A stretch of 64,000 nt of DNA from an uncultured Actinomycetota bacterium (GTDB lineage Bacteria; Actinomycetota; Actinomycetes; S36-B12; GCA-2699445). The translations under genes were made by a program, and so were the position numbers. Positions within the stretch are counted from its first letter, which is position 1, and every line of letters starts with the position of its first letter. The notes below the pieces were generated by a model. That model had not been told where the DNA came from. It did not search any database and was given only the letters and a program-made list of their open reading frames with translations. Location of the stretch: the NCBI GenBank assembly GCA_963706835.1, contig CAVPOB010000040.1:28197-92196 (forward strand), read 5' to 3'. This document shows positions 5,249 through 64,000 of this stretch, piece after piece.

Positions 5249-5820
5249 GATGCGCTCCCCTCGTTCGCAACGATGAGTTCCACGGCGTCGCGGTCGTCGA
5301 TCTCGGTGAGCAGCACCCGGACCGCGTCCTCGCGCAACGTGGTGACGTTCTTGCCGACGTGATCGGCGCGGATCGGCAGATCCCGATGACCGCGGTCGAC
5401 CAGGACAGCCAGCCGGACCGCCCGGGGCCGGCCGTACTCGTTCAGCGCGTCCAGCGCGGCCCGAACGGTGCGACCGGAGAAGAGCACGTCGTCCACGAGG
5501 ACCACGATCTTGTCGTCGATGCCGCCCGGCGGGATCGACGTCGGCTGCAGGGGCCGGGTGGGATTGCGGCGCAGGTCGTCGCGGTACATCGTCGGGTCCA
5601 CCGACCCCACCGGCACGCTGGTGCCCTCGATGGCGGCAATCGTCTCGGCGATGCGCCGCGCGAGGAAGGTCCCGCGGGTGGGGATGCCGAGGATCACCAG
5701 GTCCTTGCTGCCCTTGGCGTGCTCGAGCAGTTCGTGGGAGATGCGCGTCAGACTGCGCTTGATGTCGCGAGCATCGGCAACAGTACGGGCATTGCCGGAT
5801 TCGCTGGTAGCGGGCGCCAT
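5245..5820 (-). CDS. pyrR: bifunctional pyrimidine operon regulator / uracil phosphoribosyltransferase PyrR
   Basis: [10 protein letters not shown]...[18 protein letters not shown]...[20 protein letters not shown] (PRPP motif). I chose ATG 5820 because AGGAGG lies 9 nt upstream and a PyrR-box hairpin lies in the leader. The ORF-track start at 5937 is probably too long. Confidence 0.9.
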
Positions 5821-5825
5821 GGGCA

Positions 5826-5880
5826 CCGACCTCCTACCCCGCCTCGCCGGGCGGATCTCAGGCCGCCTCGCTGGACGGCG
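5826..5880 (-). promoter_or_regulatory. PyrR-binding RNA hairpin and ribosome-binding-site region in the pyrR leader
   Basis: The minus strand reads GCCG-UCCAGCGAGG-CGGC (plus 5862-5879), close to the conserved PyrR box UCCAGAGAGG presented in a hairpin loop. It is followed by a second GC hairpin and AGGAGG (plus 5830-5835) just before the start codon. Confidence 0.6.
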
Positions 5881-6063
5881 TTCAGGAAGATTCCTCCTGA
5901 CGGTAGCAAACGGCCCGCGACGCGAACGATGCGGCACCCGATCGGGGGAAACTTTCTGTTACCTGCCATACTCTCCGTAGTGCAGTACATTCCTTGCGCT
6001 ACATTACGTAGAGGCTGCGCAGTCTGCGGGGAGCCGTTCTTTCTAGGGGTGGGGGTAGGGCTA

Positions 6064-6618
6064 TGGCAACGGACTACGGGCGAGCACTTGGCGCTACGAC
6101 TGCGATCCATCCGGCAACAACAGAACCTTTCGCTGCAGGGCGTGGAGGAGAAGTCCCGCGGTCAGTGGAAGGCCGTCGTCGTCGGATCCTACGAGCGCGG
6201 TGACCGGGCGATCACCGTGGCCAAACTCGCCGCCCTGGCGTCCTTCTACGGCGTGCCAGTCAACGAACTGCTGCCCGACGGGGCGTCCAGCGCCACGATC
6301 GAGCCACCCCCGAGCGTGGTCATCGACCTCACCCGACTGGCAGAGATGCCCGCCCCGGCCGGCCAACTGCTGCAGCGCTACATCGCCGCGATCCAGGCGC
6401 AGCGGGGCGACTACAACGGCCGCATCCTGTCGATCCGGCAAGAGGATCTGCGCACCCTCGCCGTGATGTACGACCGCCGCCCGAGCCAGTTGGCGGAGGA
6501 ACTCATCGCCTGGGGCGTGCTGAACCCACCGGCCAGTGCCAGTGTGGCAGCAGCCCCGCCGGCGCAGCGCACGGCCGCCCGGACGCTGCCGGTCGCCCTG
6601 CCGGACGCAACCGTCTAG
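6064..6618 (+). pseudogene. bldD: BldD-family developmental transcription regulator (XRE HTH plus c-di-GMP-binding C-terminal domain); one frame break near the 5' end
   Basis: ATG 6064 gives MATDYGRALGA. An extra nt near 6096 then shifts into the frame of ORF 5359..6618: RLRSIRQQQNLSLQGVEEKSRGQWKAVVVGSYERGDRAITV...QRGDYNGRILSIRQEDLRTLAV. The protein is colinear with Streptomyces BldD and divergent from pyrR, as in Streptomyces. Confidence 0.85.
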
Positions 6619-9865: not shown

Positions 9866-12800
9866 TCAGGCACGCGCGGCCTCCATGACGGCCTCGATGG
9901 GATCGCGGCCCTCCAGCTCGGCCTGCGCCTGCGCCTGCAGGACGCGCTTGTAGTCCTGCGGCATGATCTTGCTGAAGCGGGCCAGCGCTGCGTCCGGGTC
10001 GGCCAGCAGCGCAGCGGCCACGGCGGACTCCGTCTCCTCGTGGTGGCGCCGGATCCGATCCAGGACGAACTCCCGGTCGGTGCTCGTCGAGCTCCTCGAC
10101 CTGCACCATCTCGGTGTTGACGCGGTCCCGGGCGCAGATCCAGCACGTAGGCGATCCCGCCGGACATGCCCGCGGCCATGTTGCGTCCGGTCTCGCCCAG
10201 GATGACCACGCGGCCGCCGGTCATGTACTCGCAGGCGTGGTCGCCGACACCCTCGACGACGGCGACGACGCCGGAGTTGCGCACGCAGAACCGCTCGCCC
10301 ACCTTGCCGCGCAGGAAGACCTCGCCCGCGGTGGCGCCGTAGCAGATGACGTTGCCGGCGATGATGTTGTCCTCGGCCACCAGGACCGCCGCAGCGGTCC
10401 GGCCGCACGACCAGCCGACCACCGGACAGCCCCTTGCCGAGGTAGTCGTTGGCGTCGCCCTCCAGCCGCATCGTGATCCCGGCCGGGACGAAAGCGCCGA
10501 ACGACTGGCCGGCCGAGCCGACCAGCGTCAGGTCGATCGTCCCGTCGGGCAGGCCCTGCGCATGACGGCGCGTGACCTCCGAGCCCAGCATCGTGCCCGA
10601 CCGTGCGGTTCACGTTGCGGATGCCGACCTGGGCCCGCACCGGTTCGCCGCGGTCCAGCGCCGGCCGGCAGATCTCGATGAGTTCGTTGTCCAGCGCCTT
10701 GTCCAGCCCGTGGTCCTGGGGCACCAGGCAGCGGCGCGGGTGATCGATCTGCGGCACGTGCAGGATCGGGGTCAGGTCCAGGCCGCTGGCCTTCCAGTGA
10801 TCGACGGCCTTGCGGGTGTCCAGCATCTCGGCGTGGCCGATCGCCTCATCCAGGGAGCGGAAGCCGAGGGCCGCCAGGTACTCGCGCACCTCCTCGGCGA
10901 CGAACTCGAAGTAGTTCTGCACGTACTCGGCCTGGCCGGCGAAGCGCTCCCGCAGGACCGGGTTCTGGGTGGCGATGCCGACCGGGCAGGTGTCGAGGTG
11001 GCAGACCCGCATCATGATGCAGCCCATGACCACCAGCGGAGCGGTGGCGAAGCCGTACTCCTCGGCACCCAGCAGCGCGGCGATCACCACGTCGCGACCG
11101 GTCTTCATCTGGCCGTCGGTCTGCACCACGACGCGGTCGCGCAACCGGTTCAGCAAGCAGCGTCTGCTGGGTCTCGGCCAGGCCGAGCTCCCACGGCGCG
11201 CCGGCGTGCTTCAGCGAGGTCAGCGGACTGGCCCCGGTGCCGCCGTCGTGGCCGGAGATGAGGATGACGTCGGCGTGGGCCTTCGACACGCCCGCCGCGA
11301 CCGTGCCGACCCCGACCTCAGCGACCAGCTTCACGTGGATCCGTGCATGCTTGTTGGCGTTCTTCAGGTCGTGGATCAGCTGGGCCAGATCCTCGATGGA
11401 GTAGATGTCGTGGTGCGGCGGTGGGCTGATCAGCCCCACACCGGGCGTGGAGTGCCGGGTCTTGGCGACCCACGGGTACACCTTGTGCCCGGGCAGCTGG
11501 CCGCCCTCGCCGGGCTTGGCCCCCTGCGCCATCTTGATCTGGATGTCGTCGGAGTTGACCAGGTACTGGCTGGTCACGCCGAAGCGGCCGGAGGCGACCT
11601 GCTTGATGGCCGAACGCTTGGAGTCGCCGTTGGGCAGCGGGGTGAAGCGCTCCGGATCCTCGCCGCCCTCGCCGGTGTTCGACTTGCCGCCGAGACGGTT
11701 CATCGCGATGGCCAGCGTCTCGTGCGCCTCGGCGGAGATGGAGCCGTAGGACATGGCGCCGGTGGAGAAGCGCTTGACGATCTCGCTGACGGGCTCGACC
11801 TCCTCGATCGGGCACCGGCGGTCGCACCCCTTCGGCGAAGGCGAACAGGCCGCGCAGCGTCATCAGCCGCGGCGATTCTGGTCGTCCACCTGTGGGTGTA
11901 GTCGCGGAAGATGTCGAACTGCTTGGTGCGCGTGGAGTGCTGCAGTTTGAAGACCGTCTCCGGATCGAACAGGTGCGGCTCGCCCTCGCGCCGCCACTGG
12001 TACTCGCCGCCGACCACCAGTCGCCGGTGGGCCGGGCTGATGCCGCTGGGCGGATAGGCCACCGCGTGGCGCTGCGCCACCTCCTCGGCCAGCACGTCGA
12101 GCCCGACACCGCCGAGCTTGCTCGTGGTGCCGGTGAAGTAGCGGTCGATGACTTCCTGCGACAGCCCGATCGCTTCGAAGATCTGCGCACCGCAGTACGA
12201 GGCGACGGTGGAGACGCCCATCTTGGACATCACCTTCAGCACGCCCTTGCCGAGCGCCTTGACCAGGTTGCGGACCGCCTTCTCCGGCGCGACGTCGCCG
12301 AGCCTGCCGGCCCGGGCCAGGTTCTCCACCGTCTCCATGGCCAGGTACGGGTTGACCGCCGCGGCGCCGTAGCCGATGAGCAGGGCGACGTGGTGCACCT
12401 CGCGCACGTCGCCGGCCTCCACGATGATGCCGACCATGGTCCGGGTCTTCTCCCGGACCAGGTGGTGGTGCACCGCCGACGGTGAGCAGCAGCGAAGGGA
12501 TCGGCGGCGTTCTCGGCGTCGCCGTCGCGCTGGGACAGGATGATGAACCGCTTGCCCTGGCGGATGAGGGCGTCGACCTCGTTGCAGATGGCGTCGATCG
12601 CGCCGACGCAGCGCCTCGCCCGCCGCCGTGCACCGGGTAGAGGCCGCTGCACCCGGGCGGCCGACAGCCCGGGCAGGTCGCCGTCGTCGTTGATGTGCAG
12701 CGAGCTTGGCCAGCTCGTCGTTGTCGATGACCGGGAAGGGCAGCCGGACCTGCCGGCACTGCTCGGGCTCGGTCTCCAGCAGGTTGCCCTCGGGGCCGAT

Positions 12801-14401
12801 GTAGGTCCCCAGCGAGGTGACGATCTCTTCCCGGATCGCGTCCAGCGGCGGGTTGGTGACCTGGGCGAACAGTTGGCTGAAGTAGTCGAAGATGTTGCGC
12901 GGCCGGTCGGAGATCGCCGCGATGGGCGTGTCGGTGCCCATCGAGCCGATCGGCTCCATGCCGTTCTTGGCCATCGGCGACAGCAGGATCCGCAACTCCT
13001 CCTCGGTGTAGCCGAAGGACTGCTGGCGGCGCAGCACCGACTCCCGGGAGTACACGATGTGCTCGCGCTCGGGCAGGTCGTCCAGGTGGATGACGCCGTT
13101 GGCCAGCCACTCGCCGTAGGGGTGCTCGGCGGCCAGCGAGGCCTTGATCTCATCGTCCTCCAGGATGCGGCCCTGCGCGGTGTCCACCAGGAACATGCGG
13201 CCCGGCTGCAGCCGGCCCTTGCGCACGACCGCTGGCCGGGTCGATGTCGAGCACGCCGGCCTCCGAGCCCAGGACGACCAGGCCGTCGTCGGTGACCCAG
13301 AAGCGGCCCGGACGCAGGCCGTTGCGGTCCAGCACGGCGCCGATGACGGTGCCGTCGGTGAAGGACACGTTGGCCGGGCCGTCCCACGGCTCCATGACGT
13401 GGCGTGGAACTCGTAGAACGCCCGCCGGTCCGGGTCCATCTCGGTGTGGTTCTCCCACGCCTCCGGGATCATCATGAGCACCGCGTGCGGCAGGCTGCGC
13501 CCGCCGAGGTGCAGCAGTTCCAGCACCTCGTCGAAGGACGCGGAGTCCGAGGCGCCGGGGGTGCAGATCGGGTAGAGCCGGGACAGGTCGCCGGGGATCA
13601 GGTCGGAGGTCAGCATCGCCTCGCGGGCCCGCATCCAGTTGCGGTTGCCCATCACGGTGTTGATCTCGCCGTTGTGGGCGATCATCCGGTACGGGTGCGC
13701 CAGCGGCCAGGAGGGGAAGGTGTTGGTCGAGAACCGCGAGTGCACCAGGCCGATCGCCGAGACGACGCGCTCGTCGGACAGGTCCGGGAAGAACGGCTCC
13801 AACTGGCCGGTCGTCAGCATCCCCTTGTAGACGAGGGTGCGGCTGCTCAAGCGAGGGGAAGTAGACGTCGGCCTCGCGCTCGGCGCGCTTGCGCAGCGCG
13901 AAGGCGAGCCGGTCCAGGGCGAGGCCGGAGGTGCCCGGCCCGGCGCCGTGACGAACAACTGCTGGAAGTCCGGCATCACGGCGGCGGCGGTCGAACCCGA
14001 CCAGTTCGGCGCGGTGCGGCACGTCGCGCCATCCCAGCACGGTGAGCCCCTCGTCGGCCGCGATCGCCTCGATGGCGCCTCCGGACCGCGCCTGCGCGGC
14101 ATCCTCGCGCGGCAGGAACGCGGTGCCGACGGCGTACTCGCCCTGCGGCCGGCAGCTCGAAGTCGACCACGGCCCGCAGGAACTCGTCGGGGACCTGCAG
14201 CAGGATGCCGGCGCCGTCACCGCTGTCCGGCTCGGCGCCGGAGGCCCCGCGGTGCTCCAGGTTCGTCAGCGCGGTGATGGCCAGCTCGACGATGCGGTGG
14301 CTGCGCTCCCCCGACATCTGGGCGACGAATGCCACACCGCACGCGTCGTGCTCGTAGCGGGGGTCGTACAGCCCAGTGGGCGCTGGCGTGGCTGAGAACA
14401 T
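9866..14401 (-). pseudogene. gltB: glutamate synthase large subunit; about 15 or more frame breaks as sequenced
   Basis: [28 protein letters not shown] (ATG 14401, GGAGGA 6 nt upstream) continues through family-typical blocks ([115 protein letters not shown]). These alternate among ORFs 13976..14803, 13150..14220, 11700..14102, 12236..13387, 11863..13110, 11318..12190, 10846..11754, 10221..11156, 9866..10591, 9787..10422 and 9132..10109. Confidence 0.92.
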
Positions 14402-32483: not shown

Positions 32484-35400
32484 TCACCCCAGGCACCCGG
32501 CCCCCAGCAGCGCCTTGAGGTCGGCGTACAGAGAAGGGCCGGGCCGCACCCGGAAGCGGTCCTCCAAGCGAAGCACCGTGGTGTGGTTGCCCTTCTGCAG
32601 GTGCAGGTGGACATCGACCGTGCCGGGGTGGTTGTGCAGGATCTCCTTGATGGACTCCACGACCGGCGGCACGCAGCGCGCCACATCCAGCGTGATCCGC
32701 ACCGGGCCCGTGGCCTCGGTCTGCATGTCTGGGAAGGCGATCTCGACAGCTGTGATGCGGGGTGCCTCGTCCTCGCGGCGATCGAACTTGCCCTTCACCA
32801 CCACGATGGCGTCCTCGACGAGCCGGGCGCTGACCGGGGCGTAGGACTTGGGAAAGACCATCACGTCGATCGAGGCGTCGAGGTCCTCCAGCGAGACGAT
32901 CGCCCACGGCTCCCCGGAGGCCTTCGTCATCTTCCGCTGCACGGAGGTGACCAGGCCCGCCACCTTCACCGTCTGCCCAGCCCGATCGCTGTCGAGCAGC
33001 GCAGCCACTCCCAGGTCGCTGTTGGCTCGCAGCACGTGTTCCAGGCCGTTGAGCGGGTGATCGCTGACGTACAGCCCGAGCATTTCCCGCTCCGACGCCA
33101 GCAGTGTCGACTTGTCCCACTCCCCGACCGGAATGTTGACCTGCAGCGAGCCGGTGCTGGCCGGAGCACCATCGCCGAGATCCCCGAACAGGTCGTACTG
33201 CCCCACCGCCTTGGCCCGCTTGGACTCCATCGCGACATCGACCAGTTGCTCGTGGACCTGCAGCAGTCCCTTGCGGGTGTGGCCGAGCGAATCGAAGGCC
33301 CCTGCCTTGATCAGCGACTCCACAGTGCGCTTGTTGCAGACGACGACCTCGACGGCGTCCACGAAATCGGCGAAGTCGGCGAACCTGCCGTGCTCGGCAC
33401 GGGTCCGCAGCAGCGAGTCCACCACGTTGCCCCCGACGTTGCGGATCGCCGAGAGGCCGAAGCGGATGTCGCTGCCACGGGGGGCGAAGTCGGACTCCGA
33501 CTCGTTGACATCCGGCGGGAGGACCTTGATGCCCATCCGGCGGCACTCGTTGAGGTACACGGCGGACTTGTCCTTGTCGTCCTTCACCGAGGTGAGCAGG
33601 GCCGCCATGTACTCGGCCGGATAGTTGGCCTTCAGGTAGGCCGTCCAGTAGGAGACCAGCCCGTAGCCGGCGGTGTGGGCCTTGTTGAAGGCGTAGTCGG
33701 AGAACGGGACCAGCACCTCCCAGAGCTTGGTGATCGCCTCGTCGGAGTAGCCGTTGGCCCGCATGCCGTCGCGGAACGGCACGAACTCCGCGTCGATGAT
33801 CTCCTTCTTCTTCTTGCCCATCGCGCGGCGCAGCAGGTCGGCCTTGCCCAAGGAGTAGCCGGCCAGCTTCTGGGCGATCGCCATCACCTGCTCCTGATAG
33901 ACGATCAGCTGATGGGTGTCGCCGAGGATCTCCTCCAGCGGCTCGGCGAGCTCCGGGTGCAGCGGCACCGTCGGCTTGCGGTTGTTCTTGCGGTCGGCGT
34001 AGTCGTTGTGGGCGTTGGCCCCCATCGGGCCCGGACGGTAGAGGGCGAGTACCGCGGAGATGTCCTCGAAGTTGTCCGGCACCATCGAGCGCAGCAGTTG
34101 GCGCATCGGGCCGCCGTCGAGCTGGAACACGCCGAGGGTGTCACCGCGCGCCAGGAGCTCATAGGTGGGCCGGTCGTCCAGCGGCAACTCTTCCAGGAGC
34201 ACCTCGTTGCCGGTGTTCGCCGCGATATGGCGCAGGCAGTCGTCGAGCACGGTGAGGTTGCGCAGGCCCAGGAAGTCCATCTTCAGCAGGCCGATGGTTT
34301 CGCAGGCGCCCATGTCCCACTGGGTGATGATCGTGCCGTCGTCGCGCCGCCACAGCGGCAGCACGTCCAGCAGCGGCTCTGCGGACAGGATCACACCGGC
34401 GGCGTGCACGCCGACCTGTCGCTTCAAGCCCTCCAGCCCGCGCGCCAGGTCGACGATCTGGTGCACGGTCTCATCGCTGTCGTACAACTCGCGGAACTCG
34501 CCGGCCTCCGCGTACCGCTTGTGGCCCTTGTCGAAGATGCCTGACAGCGGGATGTCCTTGCCCATCACCGCCGGCGGCATCGCCTTGGTGATCCGGTCGG
34601 AGACGCTGAACGGCAGCCCCAGGACCCGGGCGGAGTCCTTGATCGCGGCCTTCGCCTTGATGGTGCCGTACGTGACGATCTGCGCCACCCGGTCGGATCC
34701 GTACTTGTCGGTGGCGTACTTGATCATCTCGCCGCGCCGACGCTCGTCGAAGTCGATGTCGATGTCGGGCATGGACACCCGCTCGGGGTTCAGGAACCGT
34801 TCGAAGAGCAAGCCGTGCGCCAACGGGTCCAACTCGGTGATGCCCAGGGCCCACGCGATGAGCGCCCCGGCTGCCGAACCGCGCCCGGGACCGACCCGAA
34901 TCCCGACGCTCTTGGCGTGGTTGATGAGGTCGGCGACCACCAGGAAGTAGCCGGGGAAGCCCATCTTGGTGATCATCGCCAGTTCGTAGTCCGCCTGGTC
35001 GCGGTGCGCCTGCGGGACCGGGTGCGGGGCGAACCGAGCCGCCAGACCCCGCTCGACCTCCTTGACCAGCCACGATTCCTCGGTCTCGCCGGCCGGCACG
35101 GCAAAGCGCGGCATGAGATCGCGCTTCTCGCCCAGCGTGACGTTGCAGCGCTCGGCGATGAGCAGCGTGTTCTGCAGCGCCTCGGGCATGTGGCCCCACA
35201 CCTGCTCCATCTCGGCAGCCGACTTCACATAGAAGTCCTGGGCGTCGAAGCGGAACCGCTTGGGGTCGTCGATGGTCGTCTTGGTGCCGACGCACAGGAA
35301 GGCGTCGTGGACCTTCGCGTCCTCCGGGCTTGACGTAGTGCAGATCGTTGGTGGCCACGAGCGGGAGGTTCAGCCGCTTGGCGATCTCGAGCAACTGGTC

Positions 35401-36015
35401 GCGGAACTGCTTCTCGATGGCGATGCCGTGATCCATCAGTTCGCAGAAGTAGTTCTCCTTGCCGAGGATGTCCTGCATGTCGGCGGCCGTGGCCAGAGCC
35501 TGGTCGAAGTTGCCGGCCTGCAGCCAGCGGTTCACCTCCCCCGAGGGGCACCCGGTCGTCCCGATCAGGCCGGTGCCGTACCGCTGCATGAGCTCGCGGT
35601 CGAACCGGGGGTGGCGGTAGTAGCCCTCGATGCTGGCCAGGCTGGACAGCCGGTACAGGTTGTGCAGGCCCTCGGTGTTGCTGGCCCACAGCGTCATGTG
35701 GGTGTAGGCGAACTTGCCCTTGCCCTCGCTGACCTCGCCAGCACCCTCGTCGTAACCGCCGCCGAAGTCGAAGGCCCGTTTCTCGGTGCGGCCCTGGGGC
35801 GCGAAGTACCCCTCGATGCCGATGATCGGCTTGACGCCGGCCTTGGCCGCGGTGTTGTAGAACTCGAAGGCACCGTACAGGTTGCCGTGGTCGGTGATCG
35901 CGATCGCGCGCTGCCCGACATCCTTGGTCGCCTCGAACAGGTCCTGCAAGCGCGCAGCACCATCGAGCATCGAGTACTCGGTGTGGACATGGAGATGGAC
36001 GAAATCCCCGCTCAC
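32484..36015 (-). pseudogene. dnaE: DNA polymerase III alpha subunit; single 1-nt insertion as sequenced
   Basis: VSGDFVHLHVHTEYSMLDGA (GTG 36015, GGGAGGGG 5 nt upstream) runs in ORF 34471..36042 to ..ATNDLHYVKP, then continues EDAKVHDAFLCVGTKTT..KSAAEMEQVWG in ORF 32484..35228. The minus strand reads AAGCCCGGAGGACGCG where AAGCCCGAGGACGCG restores the frame (plus about 35320-35330). Confidence 0.95.
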
Positions 36016-36241
36016 GGTTTCCCCTCCCAGGCGTTCGGCCAACGACGTCCGCGCAACGATGGCGCGAGCCGGGCTTGCGGCCCGCCCGCACTGCCGTTGG
36101 GGGAAGCGTGCAACGGACGCGACCCGACAACCCTAACCCCAGCCCTCGGCGCAGATGCGCTGCCCATGCGGGGCGCCGGGGTGTCGTCCGGTCAAACCGC
36201 CGGCCGCGCTGCCAGCCACAGGCTCGCAGCCTCCGGTCCCC

Positions 36242-36590
36242 TCACGCAGGATTCGGCGCTTCCGGGCGGCCAGCGGCAGTAGGACCCCGAGAGTGAGCAG
36301 TGTCGCCGCGGCGAACAGCGAGGTCCTGACCGCGGTCGCCCCGGTCTCCGGCGTTGTGGGCCGTTCCGGCGGTGGGGGCCGGCGGTGGGCGGTTCCGGCG
36401 GCCCCGGCGGCGGTAGTGTGGTGGGCGGGGTGAAGGTGTTCGTGGCTGTGATCGCGGCGACCTCGTCGGCGGTGCCCGCCGGCTCGAACGGCGCACCCGG
36501 CCCTTCCACCACCTTGCTCACCGCGAAGGACTCCGCGGCGTAGGTGCTCGAGACGACTGCGGCGTCTCCCGCCACCGTTGCGCTGCTGGG
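36242..36590 (-). pseudogene. C-terminal remnant of a sortase-anchored surface protein, abutting repeat locus A
   Basis: ..STYAAESFAVSKVVEGPGAPFEPAGTADEVAAITATNTFTPP (ORF 36192..36818), then in another frame PPPPERPTTPETGATAVRTSLFAAATLLTLGVLLPLAARKRR (ORF 36133..36660). A stop at 36242 is reachable after a further shift. No signal peptide or N-terminal domain is left before the repeat. Confidence 0.4.
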
Positions 36591-36955
36591 TTGCACCGCC
36601 GGAGGACGTCGGCAATCGGCGCGGGGGCGGAATCGGGCGGTATGCGGGGCAGGGCTGCACCCGGCGCAGGGGTTTGCACTCGGCGCGGGGGCGGAATCGG
36701 GCGGATCGGGGCGCAGAACCTCCATCCCGGGTGCAGACCCCCGAACCGGGTGCACAGTCGCTCCGCCGGACGTGACCTCAGCCCTCGTATGAGCCCGGCA
36801 GCGCCGTGTACGGCTCACGGTGCCCGTGTCGCTGCAGGAGCGGCGAAGCCATCCACCCCCGTGCAGCGGTGCCCGCGCCTAGCCAGCCCACGCCCAGCCC
36901 AGTAAAGCCGGAGCCGCAGCCCCAGCCGCACGCCCTGGATTGGGATGAGGCCGTT
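36590..36955 (+). repeat. composite intergenic repeat, locus A: 2 direct units (64-bp spacing), 1 inverted core, and a flank homologous to locus B
   Basis: Cores at 36590-36618 (degenerate) and 36655-36683 (CTGCACCCGGCGCAGGGGTTTGCACTCGG), and an inverted core at 36731-36755 (GTGCAGACCCCCGAACCGGGTGCAC). The downstream flank shares GCGAAGCC...CCCTGGATTGGGATGAGG (36933-36950) with 45104-45180. Confidence 0.85.
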
Positions 36956-37019
36956 GGGCTCGATGGTGCGGCGTTGCCCTTCGACACCGGCCGCCGCCGG
37001 CCCGCGAAGCGCAGCGTCG

Positions 37020-38536: not shown

Positions 38537-39397
38537 TCAGCGCCGCTCCTCGCGCTCCTTGCACGACAGGCACAGCGTAGCCCTGGGAAAGGCCATCAGC
38601 CGCAGCTTGCCGATGGGTTTGCCGCAGTTCTCGCACCAGCCGTAGGTACCGCGGACCATGCGCCGACGAGCCCGGTCGACCTGCTCCAGCATCTCCACGC
38701 TGTTCGCGGCCAGAGAGATCTCCTGTTCGCGCTCGAGGGTCCGGCTGCCGGCGTCGGCCTGATCGTCGCCAGAGCCGTCGCCCGCGTCACGCAGCATCTC
38801 CGCCAACTGGTCGTCCGCGTCGGCGATCTCCTCGATCAGGCGCTCCCGCTCGCGTTGCAGTTCGGCCTGCACCTCCGCGATCTCATCATCGGTCCACGGG
38901 TCCTCGCCGGGTCGCACCGGAATCGCGCCGAGTTCGGTGCCGGCAGCGTCGGGCGCAGTCGCGGACGCCGTGGTCTCGACTGGCGACGCGTCGGGGGCCG
39001 TTGCACTGGCGGCATCTGATCCGGTCGGCCCATCGGCGGCCGGTGCAGTGGTCGCACGCTTCTGGGCCGACGGCTTCTTGGCTGTGGGCTCGGTCACTGC
39101 TGTCTTCCTCACGGCCGCCTTCTTCGTCGCGGTCTTCTTCGCAGTTGTCTTCGTGGCCGCCGTCTTCTTCGCGGCGGTCTTCGTCGCCGCGGTCTTCTTC
39201 GCCGCCGTCTTCTTCGCCGCTGTCTTCTTCGCGGCGGTCTTCTTCGCAGTCGTCTTCGTGGCCGCGGTCTTCTTCGCAGCCGTCTTCTTCGCGGCGGTCT
39301 TCTTCGCAGTCGGGGTCTCGGCTGCCGTCTTCTCTGCCGTGGAACCTTCGGTCCGGCCATCGGCTCTCGCTGCCGCCGCCCCGGACTCCGCTGGCAC
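38537..39397 (-). CDS. DdbA-like bifunctional protein: N-terminal Lys/Ala/Thr-rich histone-H1-like repeats fused to a C-terminal DksA/TraR C4 zinc-finger domain
   Basis: 286-aa ORF with about 14 KKTAA-type pentapeptides, then a coiled-coil (EIAEVQAELQRERERLIEEI..LEREQEISLA) and CENCGKPIGKLRLMAFPRATLCLSC (CxxC-x17-CxxC). It sits between lspA and ileS, as SCO2075 does. The true start may be further upstream (ATG 39488 or GTG 39494) if one nt near 39440 is spurious. Confidence 0.85.
   Translation of the reverse strand: MPAESGAAAARADGRTEGSTAEKTAAETPTAKKTAAKKTAAKKTAATKTTAKKTAAKKTAAKKTAAKKTAATKTAAKKTAATKTTAKKTATKKAAVRKTAVTEPTAKKPSAQKRATTAPAADGPTGSDAASATAPDASPVETTASATAPDAAGTELGAIPVRPGEDPWTDDEIAEVQAELQRERERLIEEIADADDQLAEMLRDAGDGSGDDQADAGSRTLEREQEISLAANSVEMLEQVDRARRRMVRGTYGWCENCGKPIGKLRLMAFPRATLCLSCKEREERR
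39100..39315 (-). repeat. coding 15-nt tandem repeat (KKTAA pentapeptide array) inside the DdbA-like gene
   Basis: The plus strand shows GCNGCNGTCTTCTTC iterated about 14 times with small variations. Confidence 0.9.
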
Positions 39398-41338: not shown

Positions 41339-44300
41339 ATGTATCGTCCGGTTCCCGCACGCATCGATCTGCCCGCGATGGAGCGGGAGATCATCGCCTG
41401 GTGGCAGGAGCACGACATCTTCCACCGAAGCCTGGCCGCGAGCGCGGGCAAGCCGATGTGGGTGTTCTACGAGGGTCCGCCCACTGCCAACGGCACGCCG
41501 GGCACGCACCACGTCGAGGCGCGGGTGTTCAAGGACGTGTTCCCGCGCTTCAAGACGATGCAGGGCTATCACGTGCCGCGCAAGGCCGGGTGGGACTGCC
41601 ATGGCCTGCCGGTGGAGCTAGCGGTGGAGAAGCAACTGGGCTTCACCGGCAAGCAGGACATCGAGGCCTTCGGCATCGAGGCCTTCAACGCCAAGTGCCG
41701 CGAGTCGGTGCACGCGCATGTCGACGAGTTCGCGGTCATGACGCAGCGCATGGGCTATTGGGTGGACATGGACCAGGCGTACTGGACCATGAACCCCGCC
41801 TATGTCGAGAGCGTCTGGTGGTCCCTGCAGCAGATCTTCAATGCCGGCCTGCTGGTGCAGGACCACCGGGTCACGCCCTACTGCCCGCGCTGCGGGACCG
41901 GGTTGAGCGACCACGAGATCGCCCAGGGCTACGAGACGGTCGTCGATCCGTCGGTCTTCGTCCGCTTCCCGGTCACCGGTGGTGCGCTGCTGGACCGCTA
42001 CCCGGGCCTGACGCTGCTGGTCTGGACGACGACGCCCTGGACCCTGGTGTCCAACACCGCCGTCGCGGTCAACCCGAAGGCCGACTACGTGGTCGCCCGC
42101 AGCCGCGGGGAGACGTTCCTGGTCGCGCATGACCTGCTCATCGCCACCCTCGGCGAGGAGGCGGAGGTGCTGCAGACCCTGCCCGGCGCTGAGCTGGAGC
42201 GGCTGCCGTACCGGCGGCCCTTTGACCTGGTGGAGATCCCGGATGCCCATTACGTCGTGCTGGGCGAGTACGTGACCACCGACGACGGTACCGGCCTGGT
42301 GCATCAGGCCCCGGCCTTCGGCGCCGACGACCTCGCGGTGTGCAGGGCCTACGACATGCCGGTGGTCAACCCGGTCGCCGCGGACGGCCACTTCGCCCCC
42401 GAGGTCGGCCTGGTCGGCGGCATGTTCTTCAAGAAGGCCGATGAGACGCTCGTCGCCGATCTGCAGCAGCGCGGGCTGCTGTTCGCCCACGTGCCCTACG
42501 AACACGCCTACCCGCACTGCTGGCGCTGCCACACGCCGCTGATCTACTACGCCCAGCCGTCCTGGTACATCCGCACCACCGAGATCAAGGACCGATTGCT
42601 GGCCCAGAACGAGGGCACCAACTGGTTCCCGGCCACCATCCAGTGGGGTCGCTACGGCGACTGGCTGCACAACAACATCGACTGGGCCCTGTCCCGGGAT
42701 CGCTACTGGGGGACGCCGCTGCCCATCTGGCGCTGCGACGAGGACCACTTGACGGCCATCGGCTCGTTGGCCGAGCTCGGCGAGTTGGCCGGGCGCGACC
42801 TCACCGGCTTCGACCCGCACCGGCCCTACGTGGACGACATCACCTTCCCCTGCCCCACGTGCCAGGCGGAGTCGCGCCGCGTGCCGGAGGTCATCGACTG
42901 CTGGTACGACTCCGGCGCCATGCCGTTCGCGCAGTTCGGCTACCCGCACCGGGGGGCGGAGGACTTCGACGCCCAGTACCCGGCGGACTTCATCTGCGAA
43001 GCCATCGACCAGACCCGGGGGTGGTTCTACACGCTGATGGCCGTCGGGACGCTGGTCTTCGACCAGAGCGCCTACCGCAACGTCGTCTGCCTCGGTCACA
43101 TCCTCGACGAGGACGGCCGAAAGATGAGCAAGCACCTCGGCAACGTCCTGGAGCCGGTGCCGCTGATGGACGCCCACGGCGCCGATGCGGTGCGCTGGTT
43201 CATGCTCGCCGCGGGCTCGCCGTGGCAGGCGCGCAGGGTCGGTCACCAGGCCATCGAGGAGGTCGCGCGCAAGACCCTGCTCACCTACTGGAACACCGTC
43301 TCGTTCCAGTCGCTGTATGCAAGGGCCGCAGACTGGAGCCCCGGGGCCGCGGTCGGCGAGCGGACCGACCTGGACCGTTGGCTGCTGTCGCAGGCCCAGG
43401 TGCTGGTGCGCGACGTCACCGAGGCCCTGGAGCGCTTCGACACCCAGCGTGCCGGTCGGGCGCTGGCCGCCTTCGTCGACGAGACGTCGAACTGGTACGT
43501 GCGCCGGTCCCGGAGGCGGTTCTGGGAGGGCGATCCGGCGGCGCTGGCTACGTTGCACGAGGCGCTGCGCATCATGACCCTCGCCATGGCCCCGTTCACG
43601 CCATTCATCACCGAGCAGGTCTGGCAGAGCCTGTTCGCGGGCGTCGAAGGGGAACCGGAGTCGGTGCACTTGGCGTCGTGGCCCACGTTGGAAGAGTCGC
43701 TCATCGACGGCGACCTCGGCGCCGACATGGCCATGGTCCGCCGCGTGGTCGAACTCGGCAGGGCCGCCCGGGCCAGTTCCGGGGTGCGCAACCGCCAGCC
43801 GCTGGCCGCGTGCCTGGTGGCGGGGGCACGTTGGGCCCGCCTGTCGCAGCAGCTGCGCGACGAGATCGCCGAGGAGCTCAACGTGCAGCGGGTGATCGGT
43901 CTGGCCGATCACGCGGGCGACTTGGTCGATGTGCAGGTCAAAGCGAACTTCCGCGCGTTGGGCAAGCGGTTCGCCAAGCAGACGCCGCTGGTGGCCAAGG
44001 GCATCGCGCAGGCCGATGGCGCGGCGCTGGCCGCCGAGGTGCGCGGGGCCGGCAGCGCCACGCTGGAGGTTGCGGAGGTGGGGCAGGTGACGCTCACCGC
44101 TGACGATCTCATCATCACCGAGACCCCCCGGGAGGGCTGGACCGTCGCCGCAGAGAGCGGCGACACCGTGGCGCTGGACCTCCACCTCACCGACGAACTG
44201 GTGCGGGCCGGCCTGGCCCGGGAAGTCACCCGGTTCCTGCAGGAGACGCGCAAGCAGGCCGGCCTGGAGATCACTGATCGCATCGATGTGGTGTGGTCCA

Positions 44301-44458
44301 GCGAGGACGGCGAGGTGGCGGCGGCGATCGGCGAGCACGCGGCCACCATCGCCGAGGAGGTGCTGGCGCTGCAGTTCTCCAACGGCGAGCCGGGAGGGGG
44401 CCACACCGCGGCGTCGGAGGAACTGCGGCTGCGGGTCTCGGTGCAGCGGCACTCCTGA
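41339..44458 (+). CDS. ileS: isoleucine--tRNA ligase
   Basis: Intact 1039-aa ORF with PPTANGTPGTHHVEARV (HIGH region), KMSKHLGNV (KMSKS) and an editing domain. Confidence 0.97.
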   Translation: MYRPVPARIDLPAMEREIIAWWQEHDIFHRSLAASAGKPMWVFYEGPPTANGTPGTHHVEARVFKDVFPRFKTMQGYHVPRKAGWDCHGLPVELAVEKQLGFTGKQDIEAFGIEAFNAKCRESVHAHVDEFAVMTQRMGYWVDMDQAYWTMNPAYVESVWWSLQQIFNAGLLVQDHRVTPYCPRCGTGLSDHEIAQGYETVVDPSVFVRFPVTGGALLDRYPGLTLLVWTTTPWTLVSNTAVAVNPKADYVVARSRGETFLVAHDLLIATLGEEAEVLQTLPGAELERLPYRRPFDLVEIPDAHYVVLGEYVTTDDGTGLVHQAPAFGADDLAVCRAYDMPVVNPVAADGHFAPEVGLVGGMFFKKADETLVADLQQRGLLFAHVPYEHAYPHCWRCHTPLIYYAQPSWYIRTTEIKDRLLAQNEGTNWFPATIQWGRYGDWLHNNIDWALSRDRYWGTPLPIWRCDEDHLTAIGSLAELGELAGRDLTGFDPHRPYVDDITFPCPTCQAESRRVPEVIDCWYDSGAMPFAQFGYPHRGAEDFDAQYPADFICEAIDQTRGWFYTLMAVGTLVFDQSAYRNVVCLGHILDEDGRKMSKHLGNVLEPVPLMDAHGADAVRWFMLAAGSPWQARRVGHQAIEEVARKTLLTYWNTVSFQSLYARAADWSPGAAVGERTDLDRWLLSQAQVLVRDVTEALERFDTQRAGRALAAFVDETSNWYVRRSRRRFWEGDPAALATLHEALRIMTLAMAPFTPFITEQVWQSLFAGVEGEPESVHLASWPTLEESLIDGDLGADMAMVRRVVELGRAARASSGVRNRQPLAACLVAGARWARLSQQLRDEIAEELNVQRVIGLADHAGDLVDVQVKANFRALGKRFAKQTPLVAKGIAQADGAALAAEVRGAGSATLEVAEVGQVTLTADDLIITETPREGWTVAAESGDTVALDLHLTDELVRAGLAREVTRFLQETRKQAGLEITDRIDVVWSSEDGEVAAAIGEHAATIAEEVLALQFSNGEPGGGHTAASEELRLRVSVQRHS

Positions 44459-44670
44459 CCGCTGCTACCGGCGAGAGGGCCGCGCCACCGGCCGGCCCTG
44501 CTGGCGCGGCCCTGCGCCGGCGAGGCTGGCAATGAGGCGCATCGCAGGGGGCGTCTGGTGGGATCCGGCGTCTGCGGGTGGAGCGAGCGGGCCGCCGGGG
44601 GCCCGGTCGCATCCCGGTGTCCAGCGGATCCAGCAATGTGAGCGGCCTCATCCCGCTGCGCCGAGGAACG

Positions 44671-45185
44671 TCTGCACCCGGTTCGGGGGTTTGCACCCGC
44701 CGCGGGGGCGGACCGGCCGGAGTGCGGGGCGGGTCTGCACCCGGTTCGGGGGTTTGCACCCGCCGCGGGGGCGGACCGGCCGGAGTGCGGGGCGGGTCTG
44801 CACCCGGTTCGGGGGTTTGCACCCGCCGCGGGGGCGGAACGTCCGGTAGTCGGGGCAGGGCTGCACCCGGTTCGGGGGTTTGCACCCGCCGCGGGGGCGG
44901 AACCGGCCGGATCGGGGCCGACAGCCACCGTCCCGGGTGCAAACCCCCGCAACCGGGTGCACCGTGGCCGCCCCGGAGGCCCTCTCAGCCCCCGTCCCGG
45001 GTGCAAACCCCCGCAACGGGTGCACAGCCGCCGCCCCGGAGGCCCCGCACGGGGCGCCGACACCGCACCCAAGCGCAGCGCCGTCCCCTGCCAGCCGCCG
45101 GCCGCGAAGCCCCGCATCCCCGGGGAACGGCGCCCACCCCGAGCCACCGCCCGATGCAGCACACCCTGGATTGCGAGGAGCCGGC
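44671..45185 (+). repeat. composite intergenic repeat, locus B: 4 direct 63-bp units, 2 inverted units (64-bp spacing), and a conserved flank
   Basis: Units start at 44671, 44734, 44797 and 44860 (TCTGCACCCGGTTCGGGGGTTTGCACCCGCCGCGGGGGCGGACCGGCCGGAGTGCGGGGCGGG; units 1 and 2 are identical). Inverted cores GTGCAAACCCCCGCAACCGGGTGCAC lie at 44937-44962 and 45001-45025. The flank ends with CCCTGGATTGCGAGGAG at 45164-45180. Confidence 0.9.
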
Positions 45186-45202
45186 AATGACCCGCAGCGA
45201 GG

Positions 45203-45673
45203 CTACCGACCGGCCTCCGCGGTCTGCTTCAGTCGAGCCAGCGTGGTGCGCATATTCGCACGGTTGTGGGCCGCGCGGTCGCCCGGGATCAGCAACGAGC
45301 CGAGCAGTCGCACCGGCAGCCCGATCAGTCCGTCGCGACGGTCCAGCCACACCTCGGTCACCACGGTCCCCCCGTTCGCAGCCGGAACGAGCCGGTAGCT
45401 CCAGCGCGACAGCGACACCGGCCCGGCATCGACGTCGAACTCCAGCAACCGCGGCGCTTCGGCGTGCCGCACCGTGCAGACCGTCCACCACCGGACCGGG
45501 CCGCGTCGGTTGCTCCCGATGAATCGGTCCCCCGCCTCCAGGCGGCGGGGGGCCCGCAGCGCCCCGGTGGCCTCTGGGGACCACTCGCCCATTCGCGCGA
45601 TATCGGCGATCAGGTCATAGACGGCTTGGACGGGGGCCTCGATCTCGATGCTCTCGGCGACCTGCGCACCCAT
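45203..45673 (-). CDS. SRPBCC (polyketide cyclase/dehydrase-like) family protein
   Basis: Intact 156-aa ORF: MGAQVAESIEIEAPVQAVYDLIADIARMGEWSPE..., the typical START/Bet v1-like N-terminus. Confidence 0.75.
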   Translation of the reverse strand: MGAQVAESIEIEAPVQAVYDLIADIARMGEWSPEATGALRAPRRLEAGDRFIGSNRRGPVRWWTVCTVRHAEAPRLLEFDVDAGPVSLSRWSYRLVPAANGGTVVTEVWLDRRDGLIGLPVRLLGSLLIPGDRAAHNRANMRTTLARLKQTAEAGR

Positions 45674-63601: not shown

Positions 63602-63637
63602 CGGGCCACCTCCTCTCACCTCCCAGACCTGGTCATG

Positions 63638-63676
63638 CCCTCCATTGCGCTCCACAATAGCCCATAGTCCCCCACT
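63638..63676 (-). promoter_or_regulatory. candidate MraZ operator: four direct TGGRN repeats with 10-bp phasing
   Basis: The minus strand reads TGGGG-gacta-TGGGC-tattg-TGGAG-cgcaa-TGGAG, 37-75 nt upstream of the mraZ start. The geometry matches MraZ boxes described in other bacteria (TGGGN repeats with 5-nt spacers). Confidence 0.6.
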
Positions 63677-63789
63677 GTCTACCGAATTGAGCCCTCGAGC
63701 AGGTAGCCATCGGGCACCGTCCGCGCTGCGACGGGCGCGCGATGGGGTGGGCGTGTCGGCAACGGAATCGCTTCATGGGCATCTCGCGC

Positions 63790-64000
63790 TGTGGCGGACT
63801 GTGGGCGACCCCGGTGGACGTGCCTGTGCACCCGTTGCGGGGGTTGGCACCCGGGGCGGGCGCTGCGGGCGGCTCCGGGGCGGCTTGCGTGCACCCGGAA
63901 CGGGGGTTTGCACCCGCGACGGTGGCTGCGGGCGGCTTCGGGGCGGCTTGCGTGCACCCGGAACGGGGGTTTGCACCCGCGGCGGTGGCTGCGGGCGGCT
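63790..64000 (+). repeat. composite intergenic repeat, locus C: flank plus at least 3 direct 63-bp units, truncated by the window end
   Basis: Cores GTGCACCCGTTGCGGGGGTTGGCACCCGG (63826-63854) and GTGCACCCGGAACGGGGGTTTGCACCCGC (63889-63917 and 63952-63980). The linkers GACGGTGGCTGCGGGCGGCTTCGGGGCGGCTTGC are nearly identical to each other and resemble the reverse complement of the inverted units of locus B. Confidence 0.85.

Follow-up and report, generated by a model that had tools for sequence, protein, structure and literature searches.

A high-copy intergenic repeat with two mirrored arrays of 63-bp units in an uncultured actinomycete, a probable modular MITE-like element

The ileS-SRPBCC spacer and the element within it

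We analyzed a stretch of 64,000 nucleotides from the genome of an uncultured Actinomycetota bacterium (hereafter the window), in which 20 large ORFs at 1-31 kb are housekeeping genes and the conserved lspA-ileS-dcw region occupies 36-64 kb. The spacer between ileS and the convergent SRPBCC gene holds an element of 647 bp (44536-45182). The features of this spacer are as follows.

44476..44513, plus strand: terminator-like hairpin GGGCCGCGCCA...TGGCGCGGCCC, directly 3' of the ileS stop codon
44528..44535, no strand: left 8-bp direct repeat GGCAATGA, candidate target-site duplication, identical to 45183-45190 and adjoining the terminus
44536..44669, no strand: left arm, kept in other copies, opening with the left terminal inverted repeat GGCGCATCGCA (44536-44546)
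44670..44921, plus strand: array of four G-rich direct units of 63 bp, with a 27-nt core and a 36-nt linker apiece
44673-44699, 44736-44762, 44799-44825 and 44862-44888, plus strand: forward cores
44889-44933: central spacer of 45 nt, following the last forward core
44922..45045, minus strand: pair of inverted, C-rich units spaced by 64 bp (cores 44934-44961 and 44998-45024)
45046..45182, no strand: right arm, with the motif GCACACCCTGGATT at 45159-45172 and the right terminal inverted repeat TGCGAGGAGCC at 45172-45182
45183..45190, no strand: right 8-bp direct repeat GGCAATGA, 12 bp short of the SRPBCC stop codon
45203-45673, minus strand: SRPBCC gene, convergent with ileS

An earlier note on this DNA had described four direct 63-bp units facing two inverted ones, and this arrangement was recovered both by Tandem Repeats Finder (44670-44918, period 63, 4.0 copies, 94% matches; 44922-45045, period 64, 2.0 copies) and from the positions of the cores. 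The 27-nt core TGCACCCGGTTCGGGGGTTTGCACCCG, every copy of which carries two TGCACCCG half-sites, occurs exactly at 44673, 44736, 44799, and 44862, i.e., with an exact spacing of 63 bp, and units 1 and 2 are, as had been claimed, 100% identical over the 63 bp. With up to 3 mismatches allowed, the core has 9 matches in the window against 0 in 100 shuffles. The order in the ileS copy is an inverted repeat with an arm of ~134 nt, direct units, a spacer of 45-46 nt, inverted units, and an arm of ~137 nt with an inverted repeat, and the repeat family as a whole has a GC content of 78%. Similarity between copies ends at ~44537 and ~45185; taken together with the inverted termini and the direct repeat, this places the element at 44536-45182, within 1-3 bp of the limits given earlier (44535-45185). 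The assembly is probably of an error-prone long-read type, with apparent frameshifts in dnaE and gltB, so that the difference between 63 and 64 bp or the lengths of G runs may be off by one.

The hairpin at 44476..44513, recognised in the fold of 44459-44535 as RNA (-50 kcal/mol, z = -2.95), is part of the pre-insertion spacer; it stands to the left of the left direct repeat and outside the element.

Termini and flanking duplication

When 45172-45182 is reverse-complemented (GGCTCCTCGCA), the left terminus agrees with it in 9 of its 11 positions (p = 6e-4 against random pairs). Past these first 11 nt we found no significant inverted match, the left arm scoring against the reverse complement of the right arm no better than shuffled sequences did (565 of 1000 as high), and a local alignment of the left and right flanks as direct repeats was likewise not significant (37 of 500 shuffles as high). 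Immediately outside both termini lies the perfect 8-bp repeat GGCAATGA, which emerged after the boundaries had been fixed independently; two random 8-mers of the window match with a probability of 9e-5, and the clean termini together with the duplication constitute one case, that of the sole complete DNA copy.

Other copies were consulted for the same features. For P0127, the translated sequence points to the left end GG.TC.TC.CA.TC.GG.GT.TGGTGG, compatible with the right end of the ileS copy. In back-translated P0123 and P0127, for which frame and boundaries are uncertain, no matching 8-bp duplication was seen, and the available DNA of the copies in the MAG CAZECO01, where L001a and L001b share ~200 nt of left flank, contains no GGCTC...TCGCA terminus. 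GGCAAT was not significant as a recurrent motif. If the insertion is true, the empty site in a close relative would read ...GCGAGGCTGGCAATGACCCGCAGCGAGG... with a single GGCAATGA.

These ends bear on the idea that the family is of the REP/REPIN type, in which a single-copy RAYT (a Y1/HUH transposase) encoded elsewhere would mobilise the core doublet, the replicating unit, as a hairpin of single-stranded DNA, and the arms and tandem units would be secondary growth of the kind seen in BIMEs. A REP is an imperfect palindrome of 20-40 nt with a conserved 5' GT(A/G)G, and Y1 transposition makes no target duplication; terminal inverted repeats and an 8-bp direct repeat are not expected of REPs or REPINs. 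The element, however, has its inverted termini and its 8-bp duplication ~135 nt outside the cores. Moreover, no conserved GTAG-like tetranucleotide precedes the cores, which have variable bases on this side (GTC, GGC, GCG, GTT, AGA, TCC), the stem within each core is only ~4 bp, and the arms are conserved parts. What speaks for REPs is the body of the element: inverted core doublets of ~100 nt with a constant 45-46-nt spacer in three organisms, a doublet hairpin of 30 pairs in 7 doublets, high copy number in intergenic positions, cores that are conserved between organisms while linkers are not, and two core subtypes comparable to the Y and Z REPs in BIMEs. The window contained no RAYT, which is weak evidence. 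On balance we consider a REP/REPIN origin unlikely.

Copies in the window and in other genomes

The earlier note had the same family recurring at two other intergenic sites of the window, and copies are indeed present at both.

36585..36952, no strand: second, shorter copy in the rluD-dnaE spacer, with a partial unit, in all ~1.5 forward units and one inverted unit
36656-36682, 36728-36754 and 36793-36952: forward core, inverted core (after a 45-nt spacer) and right arm of the second copy
63826..64000, plus strand: third copy, cut by the window end, with 2.8 forward units of a second linker type
63827-63853, 63890-63916 and 63953-63979, plus strand: cores of the third copy

The right arm of the ileS copy aligns with that of the second copy (45033-45183 with 36793-36953) at a score of 32 against 19.4 +/- 2.9 for shuffled sequences, 0 of 300 being as high, and both copies stop at the same right terminus. 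This alignment, along with the translations of other copies, establishes as real the conserved flank of ~140 nt that had been reported beside the array. In the left arm of the second copy, no recognisable homology to the left arm of the ileS copy was detected; its possible flanking repeat, GTTGCGCT (36577-36584) and GTTGGGCT (36953-36960), is imperfect at 7/8 and suggestive only. The third copy lies upstream of mraZ, 225 bp from the start of this minus-strand gene at 63601, and has units with the linker type of the inverted units in the ileS copy. Its candidate arm (63602-63825) showed no significant homology to the right arm.

A translated-repeat search retrieved 26 spurious ORFs that run through other copies on 14 contigs. 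As many as 23 of these ORFs are on 11 large ncbi/ena contigs, among them the 326,479-bp contig that carries the IleS of the window, and these 11 contigs probably belong to the same genome as the window. None of the 26 ORFs maps to the window at 100%. All 26 have G-rich forward-type cores before C-rich inverted-type cores at a spacing of 21 aa (63 nt), with 1-5 forward and 1-7 inverted units, which bears out the variable unit number proposed earlier; at some loci two or three elements stand in tandem. The left arm of the ileS copy (44539-44682) matches P0123 with 70% identity over 53 aa (E 2e-24), and the translations of P0128, P0121, and P0143 match it as well; the right arm is matched by the translations of P0122, P0123, P0126, and P0127. 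The same layout was found in CAZECO01, with four copies in 20 kb, and in one JGI contig, at least three loci coming up in the scan of a genome collection. Copies are found in the rluD-dnaE and rplO-secY spacers as well as upstream of mraZ. Across all copies and three organisms, the inverted core doublets measure ~100 nt with a spacer of 45-46 nt; the core sequence is kept between organisms while the linkers diverge, the TGCACCCG half-sites are invariant, and the core subtypes on the two sides of the element are consistently different.

In five relatives with IleS 80-90% identical, the ileS-SRPBCC spacer is 13-125 bp vs 744 bp here, the relatives being too diverged for a precise empty site. Of two further relatives, L005 has two extra genes between ileS and the SRPBCC gene, and L008 has no SRPBCC gene after ileS. 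A search for the core in ~111 kb from these seven relatives found none.

The conservation of whole units also settles the case of a degenerate or orphan CRISPR with a repeat of 27-28 nt, a spacer of 35-36 nt, and a 63-bp period. These lengths are in range for a CRISPR, and a CRISPR-DR36 match in Rfam was obtained at chance level (12.6 bits vs a gathering score of 38). However, whole units are 83-100% identical and linkers are kept between loci, the orientation switches inside the locus, the composite is found at dozens of loci, and no cas gene is present in the window. We reject a CRISPR because the linkers are near-identical, and its probability is negligible.

Folding, G tracts, and coding potential

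Folded as RNA, the region 44600-45100 reaches -329.8 kcal/mol (z = -4.7), and in this structure unit 4 is paired to inverted unit 1 and unit 3 to inverted unit 2. For a DNA fold of the complete element, z is -5.6. The consensus hairpin of the core doublet has 30 pairs and is kept in 7 doublets from three organisms. The RNA fold and the doublet hairpin uphold the suggestion that forward and inverted cores could form a stem of ~25 bp. Since compensatory changes are seen in only 2 of the 30 pairs, there is no pointer to structural selection beyond the conservation of the repeat itself.

This finding weighs on a second alternative, namely that the repeat is a structural or regulatory element selected by the host (a bidirectional terminator, a stabiliser, or protein sites phased at 63 bp) and spread by recombination. 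A very stable hairpin and the position of a copy between convergent genes would suit such a role, as would the invariance of TGCACCCG and the 63-nt phase, which is strict in 26 other copies. Against it, copies lie in every kind of spacer, including rluD-dnaE, rplO-secY, and the region upstream of mraZ; ileS has its own hairpin outside the element; close relatives have the same genes without the element; and only 2/30 pairs are compensatory. No promoter or terminator consensus was recognised either, the search of 44300-45400 for sigma-70 promoter-like or U-tract terminator-like sites having returned none. We regard selection by the host as quite unlikely to be the source of the family.

The possibility of G-quadruplexes had been raised from the many G tracts. 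The excess of G runs is real, with 34-39 runs of at least 4 G per kb in the forward units vs 4.4 per kb in the window, and no C runs; but canonical motifs (loops of up to 7) occur in two units only, neither of them among the four forward units of the ileS locus, which leaves quadruplex formation weakly supported.

A protein-coding repeat was rejected for want of a codon-phase signal: the GC content by codon phase is flat in the element (0.81/0.75/0.77) vs 0.69/0.46/0.93 in ileS. Two reading frames are open across the whole element, as is expected at a GC of 78%, and the ORFs called in different copies are in different frames and on both strands. A hidden coding repeat (63 = 21 codons) or an assembly artefact could draw on these open frames, on the ORFs called in other copies, and on the apparent frameshifts of the assembly. 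However, a short-read MAG and JGI/ENA contigs yielded this architecture in independent assemblies, no codon phase is detectable, unit periods of 64 and 65 bp are also found, and the frames and strands of the ORFs differ; both explanations are very improbable.

Searches for known elements gave little. Rfam, searched at the gathering threshold over all of the window and with E values of up to 10 over the locus, returned only miRNA and CRISPR-DR matches at chance level, and no tRNA or tmRNA genes were found. Neither the element nor its right end had a significant BLAST match in plasmids or phages; a weak Rhodococcus match (E 0.05) had no transposase nearby. The core pattern was absent from viral contigs, a literature search on the core sequence brought up only a 1986 paper on mouse MHC, and one on REPIN/RAYT in Actinobacteria found nothing. 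The search of the window for RAYT, transposase, and cas genes found none, and the statement that none lies nearby thus agrees with the window genes checked, which says little about the rest of the genome.

A modular MITE-like element and its possible mobiliser

We conclude, with a probability of roughly 0.6, that the locus is a complete copy of a lineage-specific, high-copy, non-coding interspersed repeat and that this repeat is a modular MITE-like element. The proposal of a dispersed non-coding family of BIME/REP or MITE-like type with variable unit number holds, the evidence favouring the MITE-like side. Inverted termini, a flanking duplication, a short non-coding body in multiple copies, and presence or absence between relatives are all features of MITEs, and the family is probably transposable. 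The family is new, but elements of this kind are familiar, and it is not a new kind of system.

In the mechanism that we propose, the element would have entered the short ileS/SRPBCC spacer via a DDE transposase acting in trans, which would recognise the termini and make a staggered 8-bp cut, resulting in the duplication of GGCAATGA. After insertion, the number of 63-nt units may shift in either array by replication slippage or unequal recombination, and this would explain why two units are identical in the ileS copy and why other copies range from 1 to 7 units. As both strands of every copy read G-rich first and C-rich second, any transcript or single DNA strand across a copy would fold into a long GC-rich hairpin. 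Effects on transcript ends and stability are therefore likely to be side effects and not a dedicated host function.

The GGCTC(C/T)TCGC terminus and the 8-bp duplication point to an insertion sequence of the ISL3 type, with its DDE transposase, as the mobiliser. ISArsp7, an ISL3-family insertion sequence of Arthrobacter, is reported to have inverted repeats GGCTCTTCGCGG... and an 8-bp direct repeat, while ISPst2, another ISL3 member in the same table, has quite different ends (PMC6305408). The right terminus GGCTCCTCGCAA agrees with the ISArsp7 inverted repeat at 9 of the first 10 positions, and a degenerate 10-mer terminus of this kind is expected ~9 times per 64 kb by chance. The ends of IS6-family elements, with 8-bp duplications, look similar. 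An ISL3-like parent is accordingly offered as a lead only. MITEs of ISL3 elements would resemble the repeat in the 8-bp flanking repeat, in the terminus GGCTCCTCGC (9/10), and in being non-coding, multi-copy, and polymorphic for presence or absence; they would be unlike it in that the likeness extends over ~10 nt, the left terminus GGCGCATCGCA is more diverged, and the repeat is GC-rich and highly variable in length. With regard to composition and size, MITEs are usually AT-rich and uniform in length, and the family, at 78% GC and with a highly variable length, is at odds with the MITE pattern in both.

In organization, the element is like the pneumococcal BOX, a modular MITE-like repeat in which boxA and boxC surround a variable tandem array of boxB; BOX elements measure 67-637 bp, end in inverted repeats, and are flanked by target-site duplications (PMC3049150). 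Both consist of terminal modules around variable tandem internal modules, and this likeness is one of organization only; both reach a size of ~640 bp with inverted termini, flanking duplications, and a strong predicted fold, contain open frames on either strand that are called as genes, and are sited among and beside housekeeping genes. They differ in that the units of the present element form two opposed arrays, G-rich then C-rich, whereas the BOX array is single and direct; the unit is 63 nt vs 45 nt for boxB; and the GC content is 78% in an uncultured actinomycete vs an AT-rich host.

The REPINs and BIMEs of Proteobacteria, which are mobilised by RAYTs, share with the element a high copy number, hairpin-forming palindromic doublets in intergenic positions, two oppositely oriented repeat subtypes, and clusters that vary in unit number. 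BIMEs, however, alternate in orientation, while each array here keeps one orientation with a single switch per element; and the element lacks GTAG, has ~135-nt arms with inverted termini and a flanking duplication, and is not known to have a RAYT. Mycobacterial MIRU-VNTR loci are alike in that intergenic units of 40-100 bp are repeated in tandem at many loci of an actinobacterium, in numbers that vary between loci. MIRUs are nevertheless direct, operon-oriented arrays with short overlapping ORFs and without an inverted half, arms, inverted termini, or duplication; we rejected this candidate on account of the inverted half of the element and the lack of any sign of coding.

It is conceivable, albeit doubtful, that the family represents a distinct class of mobile repeats in which transposon ends enclose a mirrored, expandable minisatellite. 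Its 63-nt units, equal to six helical turns, would each contain a pair of invariant TGCACCCG half-sites, with the G-rich side always 5' and the C-rich side 3' on both strands. If this were true, the cores would be candidate functional sites, i.e., subterminal binding sites of a transposase or of a host factor, and not passive filler; and the number of units would tune transposition or a local effect on transcription, e.g., upstream of mraZ or between ileS and the dcw cluster.

Implications for the lineage

The repeat accounts for the 744-bp 'empty' spacer and for two others in the window, as well as for at least 26 spurious hypothetical proteins produced by gene callers. Modular interspersed repeats such as BOX and BIME are few, and the family adds a GC-rich actinobacterial case to them; its mirrored, expandable interior is unusual. 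The arrays are ready VNTR markers for typing this uncultured actinomycete lineage. The repeat also predicts where short-read assemblies of the lineage will break; two contigs with identical MraZ are 1.2-1.3 kb long, with 233 and 308 bp upstream of mraZ, and such short contigs may be what a break close to the repeat would yield. One copy stands at the head of the cell-division cluster (225 bp from mraZ) and another at its far end, a placement which makes effects on the expression of essential genes testable.

Organisation of the repeat in the window

From our analysis with Tandem Repeats Finder, the repeat downstream of ileS comprises a forward array at 44670-44918 (period 63 bp, 4.0 copies, 94% matches), directly followed by an inverted array at 44922-45045 (period 64 bp, 2.0 copies). 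The 27-nt core heading each unit, TGCACCCGGTTCGGGGGTTTGCACCCG, has exact copies starting at 44673, 44736, 44799 and 44862 and inverted copies at 44934-44961 and 44998-45024; when as many as 3 mismatches are allowed, the window has 9 matches vs 0 in 100 shuffles. The earlier note had described 63-bp direct units facing inverted units, and these arrays and core positions bear it out: its two inverted core copies were located, forward units 1 and 2, which it called identical, are so across the full 63 bp (63/63), and the recurrence it reported at two further sites corresponds to the second and third copies of the family.

Copies of the repeat family in the window
44536-45182: ileS copy (647 bp), between the convergent ileS (stop 44458) and SRPBCC gene (stop 45203)
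36590-36950: second copy, about 1.5 forward units and one inverted unit, intergenic between rluD and dnaE
63826-64000: third copy, 2.8 units, ending at the window edge, 225 bp upstream of mraZ, where the promoter of the dcw (cell-division gene) cluster would be expected

Each unit consists of the core, in which two TGCACCCG half-sites are spaced 19 nt apart, and a G-rich linker; a potential CCCG/CGGG mini-stem with a variable loop (GTT, GAA, TTG, TAG, ATC, GCA) comes after each half-site. Two unit subtypes lie consistently on opposite sides, both in the window and in MAG CAZECO01. Across three organisms, conservation is highest in the central doublet, a core and an inverted core separated by a 45-46-nt spacer; its consensus hairpin has 30 pairs, with compensatory change in only 2 of them, so conservation of the inverted repeat accounts for the structure without selection on it. 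RNA folding, a check suggested in the earlier note, gave -329.8 kcal/mol (z = -4.7) for 44600-45100, and the DNA fold of the whole element gave z = -5.6. The idea of a G-quadruplex in the earlier note is weakly supported: runs of at least 4 G are about eightfold denser in the forward units than in the window and C runs are lacking there, but canonical G4 motifs are few overall and none was found in the four forward units at the ileS locus.

Copy number and spread of the family

The scan of the genome collection returned at least three loci among the matches listed, all from MAG CAZECO01 and holding four copies in 20 kb, and the metagenome scan at least one contig among the matches listed; in these copies, forward cores are followed by inverted cores, as in the window. 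Further copies were sought by searching the translated repeat against a protein database, which yielded 26 spurious ORFs (P0121-P0146) drawn by gene callers through other copies of the family. Twenty-three of them lie on 11 large ncbi/ena contigs (46-419 kb), one of which (326,479 bp) carries the IleS of the window, so these ORFs are probably from the same genome; the other three lie on small contigs from other samples. Since no 100% match to the window occurs among the 26, all are additional copies, and because the three loci of the window are missing from the set, the true copy number is probably well above 26. Forward-type core peptides precede inverted-type core peptides in every ORF, and hence either strand reads G-rich then C-rich. 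Spacing is 21 aa (63 nt) within arrays and 24-25 aa at the forward-to-inverted transition; judging from these translations, the whole family shares the 63-nt phase. Unit numbers range from 1 to 5 (forward) and from 1 to 7 (inverted), and in P0122 and P0139 two or three elements follow one another.

At one locus of MAG CAZECO01 (L001), copies at 180-420 and 5990-6130 lie in opposite orientation, 5 kb apart, flanking map-adk-secY, and share about 200 nt of additional left-flank similarity past the cores, which could be a longer arm in this MAG or a local duplication. The right flank of another of its copies (L002, 3644-3717) holds a perfect 37-bp tandem duplication, TACTCGTGACGGGGAACGCGTCGGAATCTCGGGCCCG, in 2 copies, with no relation to the 63-nt units.

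Insertion downstream of ileS

We compared the ileS loci of seven relatives whose IleS is 80-90% identical. The ileS-SRPBCC spacer is 13-125 bp in five of the seven vs 744 bp in the window.

Spacer between ileS and the SRPBCC gene in five relatives
L004: 26 bp
L007: 25 bp
L009: 24 bp
L010: 125 bp
L011: 13 bp

The core is absent from the approximately 111 kb examined from the seven relatives, and the rluD-dnaE spacer, site of the second copy, is 977 bp in the window vs 206 bp in L004. The repeat element downstream of ileS is, by this comparison of sequences, evidently an insertion. In the remaining two relatives, a SOUL-domain gene and a 70-aa ORF separate ileS from the SRPBCC gene (L005, 13122-14095), or the SRPBCC gene is missing after ileS and MarR and ABC transporter genes replace the dcw end (L008, 13124-16400); the site seems prone to insertion and rearrangement.

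Similarity across copies ends at about 44537 and about 45185. The left arm, outside the unit arrays, is matched by P0123 (70% identity across 53 aa with 44539-44682, E 2e-24) and by P0128, P0121 and P0143, and the right arm (45018-45189) by P0122, P0123, P0126 and P0127. The right arms of the second and ileS copies align (36793-36953 with 45033-45183), ending at the same base, which was equalled in 0 of 300 shuffles and confirms the conserved flank that the earlier note saw beyond the inverted units. The junctions of the ileS copy read GGCAATGA / GGCGCATCGCA ... TGCGAGGAGCC / GGCAATGA, in which GGCAATGA is a perfect 8-bp direct repeat adjoining both termini (random window pairs, p = 9e-5) and the termini match in inverted orientation at 9 of 11 positions (p = 6e-4); their joint occurrence by chance is very unlikely, even with a tolerance of a few bases at the boundaries. 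If the element and one copy of the repeat are taken out, 88 bp of spacer remain; this remnant has a strong hairpin (-50 kcal/mol) immediately behind ileS and is similar to the short spacers seen in the relatives.

At the inferred ends of the second copy, the flanking repeat GTTGCGCT / GTTGGGCT (7 of 8 positions) is suggestive only, and its left arm showed no relation to that of the ileS copy. The arms of the ileS copy gave no significant match as inverted repeats past the first 11 nt, flanking duplications were not seen in back-translated P0123 and P0127, and no such terminus was found in the MAG CAZECO01 copies within the DNA examined. Possible indel errors call for care with single-base details of the repeat: dnaE (32484-36042, -) is divided between two overlapping ORFs, one for the N-terminal part (34471-36042) and one (32484-35228) whose frame stays open to 35369, with an apparent frameshift near 35230-35370, and gltB is fragmented too (10846-11754 and 11700-14102), which suggests indel errors of a long-read assembly, or pseudogenes.

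Nature of the element and known relatives

A coding repeat was rejected, as GC by codon phase is flat in the spacer (0.81/0.75/0.77 vs 0.69/0.46/0.93 in ileS) and periods of 64 and 65 bp are present besides 63. CRISPR was excluded because the 63-bp units are 83-100% identical, 'spacers' included, and orientation switches inside the locus. The Rfam check suggested in the earlier note gave no match to a described RNA family, and no known mobile sequence matched in plasmid and phage collections or in viral contigs.

The element is dispersed, non-coding, palindromic and modular, with defined ends, present in the window and absent from the relatives; unit number differs between copies, two units are identical at the ileS copy, and the flanking 8-bp duplication has one clean case. 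Probably, a transposase acting in trans inserts the element via 8-bp staggered cuts, arrays lengthen and shorten through slippage or unequal recombination, and transcripts running across the element form a long hairpin. Together with the 8-bp duplication, the terminus GGCTCCTCGC is reminiscent of ISL3-family ends, a lead only; the match covers about 10 nt. The ends of the IS6 family look similar to such a terminus. Among ISL3-family elements, ISArsp7 (Arthrobacter) combines inverted repeats GGCTCTTCGCGG... with an 8-bp direct repeat (PMC6305408).

The closest known organisation is the pneumococcal BOX element, 67-637 bp long, in which boxA and boxC enclose a variable tandem boxB array, with inverted termini, duplications and open frames on both strands (PMC3049150); our family differs in its two opposed arrays, 63-nt unit, GC-richness and host. 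Likeness to REPIN/BIME is partial (hairpin doublets, two subtypes), whereas GTAG and alternating orientation are lacking, and the flanking duplication speaks against a Y1/RAYT mechanism. With MIRU, the family shares only the tandem intergenic units. The observation holds, and the family, a modular MITE-like interspersed repeat in an uncultured actinomycete lineage, is new but of a known kind; it does not amount to a novel type of system, and the BIME/REP-type or MITE-like reading of the earlier note was essentially right. This reading is least certain in two respects: one complete copy provides the transposon signature, and the mobilising enzyme is presumed. The family can serve annotation, assembly and strain typing; of mild interest are its mirrored interior, which can expand, and the presence of copies at either end of the dcw cluster.

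Genomic setting

The window (GC 70.6%) is a conserved actinobacterial housekeeping region with genes for pyrimidine, tryptophan and histidine biosynthesis, pyruvate kinase, gltB, lgt, dnaE, rluD, lspA and ileS, and the dcw cluster from its SRPBCC/yggT/sepF/ftsZ end to mraZ. The closest named IleS (about 72% identity) are from Nanopelagicales and Actinomycetales MAGs, and metagenomic relatives reach 80-90%. The window ORFs scanned included no transposase, RAYT or cas gene, in agreement with the earlier note, and in the whole window no mraW/mraZ leader RNA family scored above the Rfam threshold. In two Logan contigs whose MraZ is identical to that of the window, 233 and 308 bp lie upstream of mraZ; judged from these lengths, both would stop about where the repeat array sits in the window, which fits short-read assemblies breaking at the repeat.

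Other ORFs in the window
5359-6618 (+): HTH_3 and BldD-like C-terminal domains, the latter of a developmental regulator type in Actinomycetes; adjoins the pyrimidine biosynthesis genes; 419 aa as listed, 5' end probably overextended
36133-36818 (-): short ORF between dnaE and the second copy, apparently split over two frames, ending in a sortase-type sorting signal (TPETGA, hydrophobic stretch, then RKRR); the 206-bp spacer of L004 is without it
38537-39397 (-): 286-aa protein between lspA and ileS, with an N-terminal lysine/alanine-rich (T)AAKKT repeat (15-nt tandem repeat, 12.6 copies, 39102-39333) and a C-terminus that looks like a DksA/TraR-type zinc finger (CENCGKPIG...CLSCKE)
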